A DNA stretch of 64,000 nucleotides, taken from assembly GCA_964106915.2 (NCBI GenBank), contig OZ066921.1. One strand, 5' to 3'. Within the stretch, counting starts at the first letter, position 1. The number at the start of each line of letters is the position of its first letter. The notes beneath the pieces are model-generated. The model saw only the letters and a list, made by a program, of their open reading frames with translations, was not told where the DNA came from and searched no databases. Of the stretch, positions 23,449 through 55,284 are shown piece by piece. This DNA is from Podarcis gaigeae (lineage: Eukaryota). Position numbers and translations under genes: made by a program.

Positions 23449-23765
23449 AAAGGCTGGCAACATTAACCCTGCGATGTGGGAATCCCTTGCAGACGACAGC
23501 AGCGCCTGGAGACAAGTCATGTATCCACGGCAGTGACCAGAGGAGAAATGACTGCTGGGAGGAGCACAGAGAGAATAAATGCCATGGTGCACCTGTGACA
23601 GTGAAACTGGATGCCTTTATCTGCCCCAGCTGCAATAAACTATGTCTCTCCTGTACTGGTCACTACAGCCACAATAAGTGCTATAATTCTCCAACAATTT
23701 GACCTTACCCCCAAATGGTGCACTCTTCCATTGTCTCTCAAGACGGATGGATGCCAACAACAAAA
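23449..23765 (+). mobile_element. RTE-clade LINE 3' fragment (non-BovB), C-terminal zinc finger and (CAA)n tail
   Basis: Translates as AFICPSCNKLCLSCTGHYSHNKC (degenerate CxxC..SRIGLxSH zinc finger) and ends GGATGCCAACAACAA. A second copy lies on the minus strand at 43137. Confidence 0.8.
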
Positions 23766-27895: not shown

Positions 27896-28049
27896 TACAA
27901 TCCATAAGGCAGGGCATTTACAAAGCTTTTAAGGGCAGAACTTCTGAAGGGCACCTAGAAGACATGGCTTGGCTGGATATCACTTTAATTAATGTTCCAA
28001 AGTTGGGGAGCTTTCCGGATGAGATCTCTCCACAGAGCACATACTTAAA

Positions 28050-28342
28050 TTATGGAATTTACTTCCAGAAGAAGTAATGATGGCCAGTAACCTGGATGAC
28101 TTTAATAGTGGGTTAGACAAATTCACTGAGGATAAGGCTATCAACAGTTACTAGCCATGATAACTATGTTCAACCTCCACTGTCAGAGGCAGTATGCATC
28201 TGCATGCCAGTTGCTGAAAACCAGAGGAGGGGAGAATGCTGCTGTGCCCAGGTCCTGCTTTTTTGCTTCCCACTGACACCTGGTTGGCCACCGTGAGAAC
28301 AGAATGCTGCACTAGACGAATCGTTGGCATGATCCAGGAGGC
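28050..28342 (+). mobile_element. CR1 LINE 3' end
   Basis: TATGGAATTTACTTCCAGAAGAAGTA..GGGTTAGACAAATTCA (WN.LPEEV..GLDKF), then a 3'UTR ending GGCTCTTCTTATG. Confidence 0.8.
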
Positions 28343-34257: not shown

Positions 34258-34805
34258 GAGAATGTAACAATAGCCTTGCTGGATCAGGCCAGTGGCTCAT
34301 CTAGCCCAGCATCCTATTCTCACAGTGGCCAAACAATAGCACTCTCCCCTCCTGCAGTTTTTAGCAACTGGAATTTGGGATCATACAGCCTCTGACTATG
34401 GAGGCAGAGCGCAGCTATCATGGCTAGTAGTCATTGATCATCTTATCCTCCATGAATTTGTCTAATCCAGTCTTAAAGACATTCAGGTTGATGGCCATCA
34501 CTACCTCTTGTGGAAGCTCATTCCATAATTTAACTATGTGCTATATGTCCTGGATCCTCCAACATTCAGCTTCAATAATTGCCCATGAATTTTAGTGTTA
34601 TGGGTGAGGGAGAAATATTTTTCTCTATCACTTACTATATCCTGCATAATTTTATAAATTTCTATCATGTCACCCCTTATTCACCTTTTCTCCAAACAAA
34701 AAAGTCCCAAATCTGTAACCTTGCCTCATAGGGAAGTTGCCCCATCCCCTTGATCATTTTGGCTGCCTTTTTCTGGATCTTTTCCTACTCTACAATACCC
34801 TTTTT
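34258..34805 (-). mobile_element. CR1 LINE 3' fragment
   Basis: Reverse complement of the CR1 3' end seen at 28050-28342 (GGATCAGGCCAGTGGCTCATCTAGCCCAGCATCCT; TTATCCTCCATGAATTTGTCTAATCC). Confidence 0.8.
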
Positions 34806-35446
34806 TACCATCCCTTGCTCTGGCAACTCATGTGTCCTCCCCCCACCCCTGCTATTTTGCAAGATGGGCCAGCTCTGTCCCCCATCCCCAGTGTGCAGCC
34901 TATGCTTACAGCTCAGCTTCTGCCTCTCCTCTCCATGGAGAGAGGGGGGAGAGACTGCAGTGACTGAGTATACTCATCCCTTCCCCCTAAACCCTTTGTG
35001 TGTGCATCCACTTGTTGACTACAGGCATCCAAAAGGTGCTTCTGTAAGGCAAAGGTGTTCCTGAGTTTACCCAATCATGGCAATGTTTAAGCAAAAAGCT
35101 TGGCCTTTCCAGGAGTCAGAAACTTCAGAAACAGGTGCAGCAGCCTTACTCTGAAGCAAGTGTTTCCCCTTTCTTGCTTACCAGTAAGAGGTGCTCTATC
35201 CAGGCACCAGGCCCATACAGGGGAGTGAGCAGCCAAGTACACTTGCCCTGTGCCTCAATGAGCTAAACTGGCTGGGGGGGCCCCACCAGAAACTGGCTGC
35301 TTTTTTGTTTGAGTTTATAACTTTATTCCAACAAGAGTCCTGCCCTGGGCCTCAGACAAGCTCTGTATGTGCCTGCTTGGCGCTCCAGTTGTTGGAGATT
35401 GAGGGTTGTTATTGTATGTTTGTGTCCGGAGTCCCAAGATGATGTA

Positions 35447-36004
35447 CTATATTTTTCGCCCTATAGGACGCATCGGCCCATAGGACGCACCTATTTTTTG
35501 GGGGGGGAAAGATAAAAAATTATCCCCCCCCCCCCAGCCGCGGGGGAAGCCCGAGCTTTTAAAAACGCACCTACCGTAGTTTTTAGAGGAGAAAAGGATA
35601 TCTGCCCGAAGCGCGGGGTGCTCTGCTTCAGTGCACCGCATGCTCCAGGCAGCAGGCTGCTATCCGCAGCCTAGAGAGCCCTGGGAAACTCCCACAGGGC
35701 TCCCAGGCTGCAGATATCTTCCCGAAGCGCGGGGCGCTCTGCTTCAGTGCGCCCTGTGCTCCGGGCGGCAGGCTGCGGATATCTTCCCGAAGTGCGGGGC
35801 GCTCTGCTTCAGAGCACCCAGCACTCTGGGCAGCAGGCTGCGGATATCTTCCCAAAGCATGGGGCGCTCTGCTTCAGAGCGCCCAGCGCTCCGGGCGGCA
35901 GGCTGCTATCCGCAGCCTAGGGAGCCCTGCGGGAACTCCCGCGGGCTCCCCAGGCTACCTGATAGCTTCATGAAGCCTGGAGAGCGAGAGGGGTCGGTGC
36001 GCAC
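35447..36004. mobile_element. Left half of a non-autonomous Tc1/pogo(Tc2)-like DNA transposon with an internal GC-rich hairpin array; right half missing
   Basis: TA + CTATATTTTTCGCCCTATAGGACGCATCGGCCCATAGGACGCACC aligns with the reverse complement of the right end of the element at 55026-55284. No matching right TIR was found. Confidence 0.8.
35596..35965. repeat. Modular tandem hairpin array A-B-A-A-A-B
   Basis: The 65-bp unit A (GATATCTTCCCGAAGCGCGGGGCGCTCTGCTTCAGAGCGCCC..GCTCCGGGCGGCAGGCTGC) starts at ~35597, 35713, 35778 and 35843. The ~55-bp unit B (TATCCGCAGCCTAG.GAGCCCTG..GGGCTCCC.AGGCT) starts at 35661 and 35907. Both units are self-complementary. Confidence 0.92.
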
Positions 36005-36376
36005 CAGATCTTGGAAGTCGCAGTGCTGAGCGAGCTTCCGCAGTTCAGCTAGAAATGCAGATACAGACTCCCCAGCACGCTGCTGCCTCTTATGAAACTC
36101 CATCCGCCGGGCCATCTTGGTCTCAGTAGGCGCCAAATGGCTTGTTAGGCAGGCAAGAATATCTTTGAGAGATGTCTCACTTAGCTTCGCTGGAGCAAGC
36201 AATGCCTTGGCCAGCGTGAAGATCTCAGGCCCACAGTAGCTCAGGAATGTGGCCCTTCTTTTGCTGGCATCAGTGATCCCTTGAGCCTCTGCGAAGAACT
36301 CGAAGCGTTCGACGTAGTCTTCCCACATGTTGGGCTCTGATGGCTGGAAGGGCTCCAATACCCTTGGACTCTCCAT
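35906..36376 (-). CDS. Gypsy/Ty3 gag N-terminal (capsid) ORF of ~124 aa, read through into ~32 aa of MITE-derived sequence (156 aa in total)
   Basis: LEPF.P....WEDYVERFEFF..AQGI.D..KRRATFLSYCG...F and the MHR-like RQQRAGESVSAFLAELRKLAQHCDF are typical of Gypsy gag. The ATG is in good Kozak context (ACAATGG) and the frame has no stops. Expression is unknown. Confidence 0.8.
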   Translation of the reverse strand: MESPRVLEPFQPSEPNMWEDYVERFEFFAEAQGITDASKRRATFLSYCGPEIFTLAKALLAPAKLSETSLKDILACLTSHLAPTETKMARRMEFHKRQQRAGESVSAFLAELRKLAQHCDFQDLVRTDPSRSPGFMKLSGSLGSPREFPQGSLGCG

Positions 36377-36481
36377 TGTCCTGTGGGCAGGGTCGTCTTC
36401 TCAGCTGGCCAGTGAGTCTTGTTCTTAGCTACAATCCGGACTCTGAGGCAGGGCTGCGTTAACCGCTCCTCAGCATTCCGG

Positions 36482-36499
36482 ATCCCATCCTCGTCGCCA
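36482..36499 (-). other. Primer-binding site complementary to the tRNA-Ser(GCU) 3' end
   Basis: Minus strand reads TGGCGACGAGGATGGGAT. The plus strand ATCCCATCCTCGTCGCCA matches the last 18 nt of vertebrate tRNA-Ser(GCU) including CCA. It lies 2 nt from the LTR end. Confidence 0.9.
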
Positions 36500-36501
36500 G
36501 T

Positions 36502-36850
36502 TGTTGTGACGTGGGGTTTGTGATTTCAGCTCTCTTGACATAATATGCTGGAGACAGTTCTCTAGTAACACTTCTTTATTAAAGCAAACAAGACTGGGGC
36601 CTGAGGAGGGGAGAGCTACATTTATAGGGAGAGGGAACTAACTAGAAAGGATACATTTTGGAGGGAACAATCTCAGGCAATCACAGTCCTGTCTTTTGGA
36701 GGAAACCAATAAGACAGAGGATCCAAATACAGCAGCTTAAATGAACCAATAGTAGCTGTACCCTCTGGAACCAAAAGGCAGTTACTTTACCCTAATGCAA
36801 TACAGACAATAATAATACAGATATAAAATCCTTTGACTCAATACACAACA
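36502..36850 (-). mobile_element. Gypsy 5' LTR (349 bp)
   Basis: Bounded by the inverted repeat TGTTGTG...CACAACA (TG...CA). Minus-strand TATAAA (~36621-36626) is followed by AATAAA (~36575-36580), with two CCAAT boxes (~36706, ~36746). It abuts the PBS. Confidence 0.9.
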
Positions 36851-37644
36851 GTATCTGCTACAGTTCTAGGAAGAGAAAAGTTAGCAATGTGCTCAGGTTC
36901 CTATGAGTGTTATGAAGACAGGTTGCATTGTGCTAAGTGTTTCACTGTATGCAAAGGGCCATTTCTCCCAGATTTCCATTATCAAAGTTCCCCATTGAGA
37001 GAACTAAGTGTGCATTATGGGTGAGCAATATCTGGTTTTCAGCATCATGATGTATCAGCAGCTAAACATTGCAATATTCCACCATATCACAACGTCTGAA
37101 ATTAGAGATCAGGCATGAGGATGAGGGAAGGAGCATTCACGGAGATCGTGCAGATGGGGTGTGTGCAGATCAGGCGTGGGGATGTGGGAAGGAGCAGTCA
37201 TGGAGATCAAGTGAGTGTCCACTGTGGCTACTGCTGCTTTCCTGCTGACTGAGAAAAGCTGCTCTGCCTCAGTGCCAGGGGAAGGTAGTGCCACAGTGCC
37301 TTCAAGTGAGGAAAGGCAACTCAGATCAGCAGTGATGGCCGTGCCTCTCCATCAGCGTGAGGGAAGGCAGCTCAGATAAGCATGGTTATTGGCTGAGATC
37401 ACTGTGCAATATCGGTGGTGCCATGAAATTGGCTGCCCTGCCCTCCCTCATGTGAATAGCAAGTAGTGATATATTGCTGCATATTGCCAGGTCAAAATCA
37501 TTATCGCAGTGTGATTTCAAAACTGATTTTGGCTAATATATTGAAAAATCGCATAGTGCTAGAGTGCATGATAGGAGGCCCGAGTTTTGACCTCAATCCT
37601 ATGCAACTATTGTCTAAACTGTGGTCTCTCACTGTGGAGTTAGT

Positions 37645-43136: not shown

Positions 43137-43511
43137 TTGGCATCCATCTGCCCAAGAGATAACAGATGAGTGTGCCATTGGGAGTAAAGTCAAACCGTCT
43201 GAGAGTTACAGTGCCTGCTGTGGCTGTAGAGACCAATACAGGAAAGACATATTTTATTGCAGCTGGGGCATATGAAGGCATCCAGTTTTGCTGTTACAGA
43301 TGTACCATGGACTTTATTTTCTCTGAGCCCCTCCCTGCGATCATTTTTCCTCTGGTCACGGATGTGGATACACAACCTGTCTGTCTCCAGGCACTGCTGT
43401 CAATTGCAAGGGATTCCCACACGGCGGGTTTAATGCTGCCAACCTACATGTCACATTTGCAGACACCTTTATAACGCAGAGTTGGTCTGCCAACAGGCCT
43501 GGTGCCTGCCA
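43137..43511 (-). mobile_element. RTE-clade LINE 3' fragment (same family as 23449)
   Basis: Minus ORFs read GTRPVGRPTLRYKGVCKCDM and AFICPSCNKICLSCIGLYSHSRHC. Confidence 0.85.
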
Positions 43512-43925: not shown

Positions 43926-44466
43926 GACAGCAGTCATGAAATTAAAAGACGCCTGCTTCTTGGGAGAAAAGCAATGACAACATCTTAAAAAGCAGAGACA
44001 TCACCTTCCCAACAAAGGTCCATATAGTAAAAGCTATGGTTTTCCCAGTAGTGATGTATGGAAGTGAGAGCTGGCTGATCGCCAAAGAATTGATGCTTCT
44101 GAATTATGGTGCTGGAGGAGACTCTTGAGAGTCCCATGGACTGCAAGAAGATCAAACCTCTCTATTCTTAAGGAAATCAGCCCTGAGTGCTCACTGGAAG
44201 GACAAATCGTGAAGCTGAGGCTCCAATACTTTGGCCACCTCATGAGAAGAGAAGACTCCCTGGAAAAGACCCTGATGTTGGGAAAGATTGAGGGCACAAG
44301 GAGAAGGGGACGACAGAAGATGAGATGGTTGGACAGTGTTCTTGAAGCTACCAGCATGAGTTTGACCAAACTGCGGGAGGCAGTGGAAGAAAGACAGGAG
44401 TGCCTGACGTGCTCTGGTCCATGGGGTCATGAAGAATCGGACACGACTAAACGACTAAACAACAAA
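43926..44466 (+). mobile_element. RTE-BovB LINE 3' fragment
   Basis: HEIKRRLLLGRKAMT, then RVPWTARRSNLSILKEISPECSLEG..LRLQYFGHLMRREDSLEKTLMLGKIEG.RRRGRQ.MRWLD. The 3' end reads CGGACACGACTAAACGACTAAACAACAA. Confidence 0.95.
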
Positions 44467-44518
44467 GAAAGGGAATCTATTCCAAATATTATTTTCTAAT
44501 GAAAGTTTAAAATACTTT

Positions 44519-55025: not shown

Positions 55026-55284
55026 CTGTATTTTTTTCTCTATAAGGCTCACTTTTTCCCTCCTAAAAAGTAAGGGGAAATGTGTGTGCGTCTTATGGAG
55101 CGAATGCAGGCTGCACAGCTATCACAGAAGCCAGAACAGCAAGAGGGATTGCTGCTTTCACTGTGCAGCAATCCCTCTTGCTGTTCTGGCTTCTGAGATT
55201 CAGAATATTTTTTTTCTTGTTTTCCTCCTCCAAAAACTAGGTGTGTCTTGTGGTCTGATGCGTCTTATAGAGCGAAAAATACAG
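55026..55284. mobile_element. Tc1/pogo(Tc2)-like MITE with a central perfect hairpin
   Basis: TA-CTGTATTTTTTTCTCTATAAG ... CTTATAGAGCGAAAAATACAG-TA. A 31-bp perfect inverted repeat lies at 55125-55195. Confidence 0.9.

Follow-up and report, generated by a model that had tools for sequence, protein, structure and literature searches.

A recent, truncated Ty3/Gypsy gag fragment inside an older hairpin MITE of Podarcis gaigeae, probably without function

The K02A2.6-like elements of lacertid lizards are members of Ty3/Gypsy (Metaviridae) and include XP_060130523.1 from Zootoca vivipara as well as numerous predictions from Podarcis. They feature a short LTR, a primer-binding site (PBS), and a single gag–pol ORF with the order PR-RT-RH-IN and no env match. 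The locus described here lies in a 64,000-nucleotide stretch of Podarcis gaigeae DNA, hereafter the window, and shares with this family the short LTR and the PBS as well as the start codon and 114–119 of the first 124 Gag residues. However, the copy in the window ends at gag codon 124, without nucleocapsid, pol, PPT, and 3′ LTR. The second component of the locus is a MITE. The Tc2-related, non-autonomous Tc1/mariner families TcMar-N4, N6, and N13 of Anolis are non-coding, high in copy number, and feature a TA target site and a CYGTAT start; PMC3014272 tabulates anole families with such sites and termini, one of them Tc2-related. The MITE in the window agrees with these families in all four respects—the start being CpG-decayed here—but its TIR differs past the first 6–7 bases, it carries a central hairpin and a 65-bp GC array, and one of its ends is lost.

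Capsids of Ty3/Gypsy origin have been domesticated as half-capsids (RTL8, LDOC1) and as full capsids (Arc, PNMA, PEG10). Most of these genes date back at least 100 million years; they have orthologues in different species and evolve under purifying selection (PMC10516033). The capsid fold is shared with the family of the window copy—dArc is the best match—and the window product resembles RTL8 and LDOC1 in keeping an N-lobe, to which a foreign tail is attached. In contrast to the domesticated genes, the window copy is nearly identical to a multicopy family and absent in the sister taxon. The yeast restriction factor DRT2, derived from Ty1′ Gag, is likewise a Gag fragment from a resident active family; it has a capsid C-terminal domain, is transcribed, and restricts (PMC10951436, in part), whereas the window copy has a broken C-lobe and is known from sequence alone. 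Truncated LTR pieces with short microhomology and lost target DNA also result when reverse-transcription products mediate break repair (Ono et al. 2015) and when integration is aberrant and one-ended. The piece in the window differs from such products by having one precise LTR terminus and both ends on landmarks of the MITE.

The locus is probably a recent, single-locus, neutral remnant of a truncated Ty3/Gypsy element, functionless and located at the edge of an older MITE, to which it is joined at a hairpin; an ordinary broken insertion is most likely, rather than a new gene. The two element families may well carry names elsewhere. Contigs from 4 of the 24 listed sequencing runs were compared with the window over 34700–37600: X1 and X2, which are two samples from two studies of one species (organism A); X4 (organism B); and the RNA run X23 (organism E). 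Of about 13,700 contig pieces, the comparison covers 24; it further covers 24 loose ends out of 1231 and 40 variant rows out of 183.

The Gypsy part of the locus is read on the minus strand. The 5′ LTR (36502–36850) has a length of 349 bp, is bounded by TG and CA with a 7-bp terminal inverted repeat, and is almost CpG-free (observed/expected 0.07). A TATAAA motif is located at 36621–36626 and an AATAAA motif at 36575–36580. The sequence-only reading had listed TG..CA, CCAAT, TATA, and AATAAA as an intact promoter: The termini, TATAAA, and AATAAA stand, whereas CCAAT is absent on the sense strand and occurs only as two inverted boxes (36706–36750; ATTGG at 36750 and 36710). The promoter is, as a list of motifs, a putative one, and the LTR may fire as any young LTR of its family would. 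The PBS (36482–36499) comprises 18 nt, begins 2 nt past the LTR, and is presumably a match to tRNA-Ser. It is followed by a leader of 105 nt (36377–36481) and by the gag start codon at 36376, whose context (A in position −3, G in position +4) is strong; the 18-nt length of the PBS, the leader, and the start context had been described correctly. Two further ATGs, at 36488 and 36476, lie ahead of the gag ATG and open a short uORF, which begins within the PBS (36488–36459).

The ORF (35906–36376) encodes 156 residues and is composed of two parts. The first 124 codons (36004–36376) are the 5′ part of gag and contain, by homology and structure models, the capsid N-lobe with four helices and the first two helices of the C-lobe, including an MHR-like stretch. 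The following 32 codons are read through into MITE sequence up to the stop codon at 35906 (35906–36003). This division had been proposed earlier and holds, since residues 1–124 align to the Gag of the family. The first AATAAA past the ORF is located at 35322–35327; a transcript reading through to this signal could end there and would measure about 1.3 kb. An LTR with TG..CA termini followed by a PBS marks the piece as a Ty3/Gypsy remnant. The 3′ side of the element is gone, and with it any target-site duplication: A scan of the 64-kb window gave neither a second LTR nor a pol ORF of at least 110 aa, as the sequence-only reading had stated.

The gag is in its best matches 92 to 96% identical to a multicopy lacertid Ty3/Gypsy family that is K02A2.6-like and, by its features, Mag-type. 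Because it is this close to a family with intact gag–pol copies, the gag in the window is not a diverged host gene. Homologue searches matched 4 of 30 and 10 of 548 candidates, and 13 of these 14 matches come from lacertids (Podarcis, Zootoca) or a Logan contig. The residue counts given above hold for 32 of 198 proteins compared, which align ungapped from the same start methionine. An intact single-ORF gag–pol relative of 1358 aa, with matches to zinc knuckle, protease, RT, RNase H, and integrase and no env match, heads a cluster of 67 members (40 members read, 15 listed). In the relative P0014, which is 92% identical, pol has the order PR-RT-RH-IN; pol is absent from the window copy. The wider gag family comprises 5735 representatives at E values up to 0.001. 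Searches for the DNA around relatives gave 116 pattern matches in metagenome contigs, 0 of them confirmed, and 3 in viral contigs, again with 0 confirmed; a pattern scan with the hairpin arm of the MITE gave 0 matches. The Mag lineage is characterized by a Ser or Leu PBS, short LTRs, 5-bp duplications, a length of about 5 kb, and often a single ORF; among the Mag elements tabulated in PMC3286476, the PBS is most often of the Ser type. The features of the family are consistent with this lineage, although such traits are not unique to Mag and the Ser assignment of the PBS is presumptive. A description of the Podarcis Gypsy family was not found, by title or opening of the abstract, in the literature searched, which excludes most subscription journals. 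The accessible parts of PMC10058329, PMC3587641, and PMC2774666 hold neither a family name nor a Mag-defining test, and none of the titles listed for the PBS motif was relevant.

The MITE belongs to the Tc1/mariner superfamily and is Tc2-like. Its surviving end (35445–35500, minus strand) features a TA target site at 35445–35446, a TIR with a CYGTAT-type terminus from 35447, and two subterminal direct repeats; it was identified by alignment and is present with its flank in X1 and X4, and other copies read TA-CCG at this place. The end at 35447 aligns with the right end of a complete MITE of 259 bp at 55026–55284. This element is flanked by TA at either side and follows the same plan, its paired ends enclosing a central hairpin with about 30 bp per arm (z −12.9). 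The TIRs are, hence, paired in this related copy, whereas one end is missing at the locus itself. Internal to the MITE is a GC-rich array of self-complementary units of about 65 bp (35596–35950; z −8.7). Next to the array, one arm and the center (36000/36001) of the central hairpin are retained (35971–36005), within which a perfect palindrome of 10 bp spans 35996–36005. The TA-C at 36851–36853 (minus strand), directly before the LTR, could be the remnant of the lost MITE end, namely the TA target site and the first base of the TIR—a post hoc assignment, with TAC occurring at about 1% per position in the flanks. In other copies, the end motif is placed directly beside the hairpin, and therefore the lost part of the MITE may measure only about 130 to 150 bp. 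For the same reason, a reading of the whole MITE as a mirror-image foldback was rejected. A heptamer resembling an excision footprint lies inside the MITE at 35572–35578 and is apparently common to other copies of the subfamily, as paralogous contigs span it without gaps. Heptamers of the form TA-CNG-TA occur 17 times in 1–64000, compared with 7.3 expected, and 0 of 100 shuffles reach 17; the sites include 4015, 4393, 4597, 5236, 10069, and 35572, and 2 of the 17 are the ends of the intact MITE. This excess suggests frequent past excision by this transposase family. Excision footprints of lizard mariner MITEs were not found in the literature searched.

The junction between gag and MITE features a microhomology of 2 bp at 36004–36005: Contigs of the gag family fit down to 36004, and those of the MITE family up to 36005. 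In all four runs, MITE copies extend beyond 36005 into a second arm that mirrors the retained one. Because this continuation is centered at 36000/36001, the join is located 5 bp past the tip of the hairpin. The sequence-only reading had overlooked this position at the hairpin center as well as the order of events. The junction 36004/36005 itself is spanned by none of the 24 contig pieces listed of about 13,700 and is known from the assembly of the window alone. Insertion of the MITE into gag was considered and rejected: The join carries neither a TIR nor a TA, and the MITE predates the LTR. Literature on deletion at palindromes or MITE hairpins with microhomology gave, by title, nothing on such a case.

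The order of events can be read from the comparison of two carriers with one relative. In X1 and X2, one contig extends from the unique flank 26–27 bases into the LTR with 0 differences; this is shorter than the 31 bases required by the bridging rule and about the expected reach of a unique contig into a repeat. The depth of this contig is 40.5 in X1 and 10.8 in X2, compared with 36.6 and 11.1 for the other flank. Since the flank-to-LTR contig is unbroken, an empty allele seems to be absent from both runs. Both carriers thus look homozygous for the insertion, a state compatible with fixation through either drift or selection. In X4, a contig of 434 bases fits 37260–36851 and then continues with 24 unmatched letters, and the LTR is absent there. 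That this contig stops about 24 bases past 36851, as if entering a repeat, would fit a MITE end at this point, again by a post hoc argument. X4 nevertheless carries the MITE end with its flank (2 differences and 2 gaps in 143) and the array (2 differences in 148). In four orthologous pieces with a total of 1039 bp, X4 and the window differ by 9 substitutions, a divergence of about 1%. Because X4 has the MITE without the LTR, the MITE is older than the split, and the Gypsy piece is younger or still polymorphic. Hence, the MITE came first and the Gypsy piece second. Orthology in related species, as expected of a domesticated gene, was not found, the LTR being missing at the site of organism B (one relative).

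The gag family itself is abundant. A gag contig has a depth of 4030 in X1 (single-copy 34–41), 1258 in X2 (8–11), and 197–228 in X4 (9–20); as a measure of rough multiplicity and not of copy count, this corresponds to about 100, 115, and 10 to 20 times single-copy depth. The roughly 100-fold depth in organism A compared with the 10- to 20-fold depth in organism B may indicate that this Gypsy family has recently expanded in a species-specific burst. The summed LTR depth in X1 is 16 to 48 times the gag depth, which, although summed depth is not a copy number, suggests many solo LTRs in organism A. The array is, in contrast to the gag, represented by a contig with 0 differences at single-copy depth (38.9 in X1 and 7.5 in X2). 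The earlier description of the locus as a recent deletion-type product is supported by the young multicopy gag, the single-copy surroundings, the absence of the LTR in a close relative, and the microhomology at the join.

The capsid was modeled for the protein of the family (alignment of 67 sequences) and for the window product (68 sequences). The family model comprises nine helices (residues 15–31, 37–47, 50–60, 70–81, 87–96, 105–116, 124–135, 139–147, and 153–176) in a two-lobed capsid fold, with four fold matches at E values up to 0.001, among them the dArc1 capsid at 1.3e-4. In the model of the window product, helices 1–6 are kept at high confidence—the pLDDT exceeds 90 over most of residues 11–110—and the three helices at 124–176 are lost. 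The tail has a pLDDT of 51–57 over residues 131–156. This product matches the two-lobed fold weakly: No fold match was obtained at E values up to 0.001, the best being dArc1 at 0.04. On the profile side, Pfam reports PNMA at 1.3e-5 and a weak Retrotrans_gag. The CA-CTD of Ty3 has five helices, and its C-terminus is required for assembly (PMC6525542, in part). As modeled, the product could not build a capsid C-lobe, and it is without nucleocapsid; it is most likely silent or degraded. The proposal that the ORF is raw material for a capsid-like gene is, hence, not borne out, with three of five C-lobe helices gone and a low-confidence tail of chance length. Only 4 of 32 tail residues match the continuation of the family protein. 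An open tail is not unusual—when the arm was shuffled 20,000 times, 47% of the shuffles kept a frame open over at least 32 codons, and the three real frames of the arm stop after 11, 15, and 31 codons—and the 32-codon tail was therefore rejected as a sign of selection.

Compared with the deep gag contig of X1, the window copy has five differences over 335 bp. For three of the five, both letters are present among family copies in X2. At codons 16 and 17, all listed depth of X1 and X2 carries the other letter, and the residues of the window copy at these codons are common to 0 of 32 family proteins; these changes look private. Both alter an amino acid, and two changes are too few for dN/dS. This pattern is the look of a young, unselected copy. 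No RNA data set containing the stretch was listed. In the RNA run X23, of which about 12% was read and whose organism E may lack the locus, the depth is 0 for the gag at 36058–36445 and for the unique flank at 34797–35281.

The locus could have arisen by several routes. The site was first occupied by the Tc2-like MITE, flanked by TA and equipped with its central hairpin and GC array, as seen in X4. After the split from the close relative, as two samples compared with one show, a copy of the abundant, env-less Ty3/Gypsy family came to rest at the far end of the MITE with a precise LTR start. Gag codon 125 onward, pol, the 3′ LTR, the far end of the MITE, and one hairpin arm would then have been lost, including about 4 kb of the element, presumably because the DNA broke at a hairpin or cruciform tip and was joined via the 2 bp of microhomology. 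Palindromes are break-prone fragile sites (PMC7999016, in part). Normal integration followed by deletion is the route we prefer, although we hold it to be about evenly balanced between right and wrong. It requires two coincidences: The LTR starts 1 bp inside the MITE end, and the break is located at most 5 bp from the hairpin center, each with a post hoc frequency of about 1 to 2%. Exactly these landmarks, TA-C on one side of the Gypsy piece and the hairpin center on the other, favor a patch made in a single step, with the same end product, in which a transposase cut at the MITE end and a break at the hairpin tip left a gap and repair captured a piece of Gypsy cDNA to fill it. Frequent cutting by the transposase is suggested by the excess of footprint-like heptamers (17 compared with 7.3 expected), and truncated LTR-element cDNA is captured at breaks with 2-bp microhomologies in mouse (PMC4516963, in part). 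However, the LTR begins exactly at TG, as integrase leaves it; the contig of the relative stops matching at 36851, and a microhomology on the LTR side has no sequence support. Deletion of ordinary insertions is, moreover, far commoner than cDNA patching, and we regard the patch as unlikely. The exact LTR start would also be obtained if integrase joined the 5′ LTR end only and host repair fused the resected other end to the hairpin tip with deletion of target DNA. Aberrant HIV and ASLV proviruses likewise combine a normal end with a truncated one that shows short homology, and flanking DNA is deleted (PMC5041404), but these cases required drugs, mutant integrase, or mutated ends. Such one-ended integration would need a resection of about 4 kb, as estimated from the 1358-aa ORF, and equals a later deletion in its outcome, without the intermediate allele; it is quite improbable. 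Finally, the carriers may have a full element beside a whole MITE, the middle being missing from the assembly of the window or from the individual sequenced. No listed piece spans the junction, both outer joins look alike with a full element, the best-matching run has just 0.61 of the sampled words, and hairpins disturb sequencing. On the other hand, a 2-bp join of two unrelated repeats is atypical for repeat collapse, and a short contig enclosed by two high-copy repeats would be expected to go unlisted or to be discarded; an artefact or private deletion is rather improbable.

Two further explanations assign the locus a role or a mobility of its own. The hairpin break might have made, in one step, an LTR-driven capsid gene with an N-lobe only, homozygous in one lizard species and dominant-negative on a recently expanded Gypsy family; we consider this scenario very improbable. 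As incipient domestication, it would have the LTR drive a Gag reduced to the N-lobe, which would be built into particles of the family it stems from and poison them. The frame is open, the start context is strong, and the N-lobe is well folded in the model; the insertion is apparently homozygous in two of two carriers of the species with the deepest gag signal; and half-capsid regulators (PMC10516033, in part) as well as Gag-derived restriction factors (PMC10951436, in part) are known. Truncation alone is compatible with function, because the N-lobe-only capsid genes LDOC1 and RTL8 have been domesticated. However, an open frame is expected in so young a copy, the locus is absent from a relative about 1% diverged, and of private changes there are just two, each of them non-synonymous. 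In the carrier species, the abundance of the family is raised rather than lowered; yeast DRT2 works via the C-lobe, which is broken here; and the exact 156-aa protein is absent from a collection of 15 billion catalogued sequences. Domestication is, hence, disfavored by age, distribution, and the lack of any sign of expression rather than by architecture, and would come as a great surprise. A composite mobile family, in which LTR-gag and the MITE end are amplified as a unit, had also been put forward. Anole non-autonomous DNA transposons often carry cargo from other elements (PMC3014272, in part), and the locus has TA-C on one side and a TIR on the other. Because the adjacent array is single-copy, this explanation is disfavored: Array and both flanks are at single-copy depth, by which dispersed copies of the junction were, indirectly, judged absent. 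In addition, the MITE of the relative at the same site lacks the LTR, no homologue found carries the MITE-derived tail, and one TIR is missing. A composite family is thus hardly credible.

As a broken insertion, the locus is of low importance as things stand; vertebrate genomes commonly contain truncated LTR elements that are nested in other repeats. It has modest value as a dated, species-limited case of a retroelement fragment with each of its two ends on a landmark of a hairpin MITE, and it hints that abundant MITEs of this kind are fragile sites that leave many footprints. If the fragment were expressed and selected, it would provide a rare view of the onset of gag domestication in a reptile, with the ancestral empty site available. 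The dominant-negative scenario, if true, would amount to an RTL8-like regulator caught at birth, the uninserted site still being present in the sister taxon.

The LTR points toward a CpG island at about 1–2500, 34 kb away, which carries promoter-like sequence. From a donor-like GTAAGT on the minus strand near 997, one or more transcripts seem to exit the window on its left side. A crude exon scan of the window gave 36 candidates and no convincing host exon, and the idea that the LTR acts as an alternative promoter for a host gene found no support; the same holds for interference with the host promoter. A minus-strand frame of 143 aa at 44068–44499 resembles what we take to be the end of an RTE/Bov-B-type reverse transcriptase. 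The flanks at 35282–35446 and 37028–37600 contain further dispersed repeats, as judged by high summed depth and many joints. Two more inverted pairs of dispersed repeats, with about 79% identity, are located at 23451–23757 and 43137–43445 and at 28036–28240 and 34338–34542.
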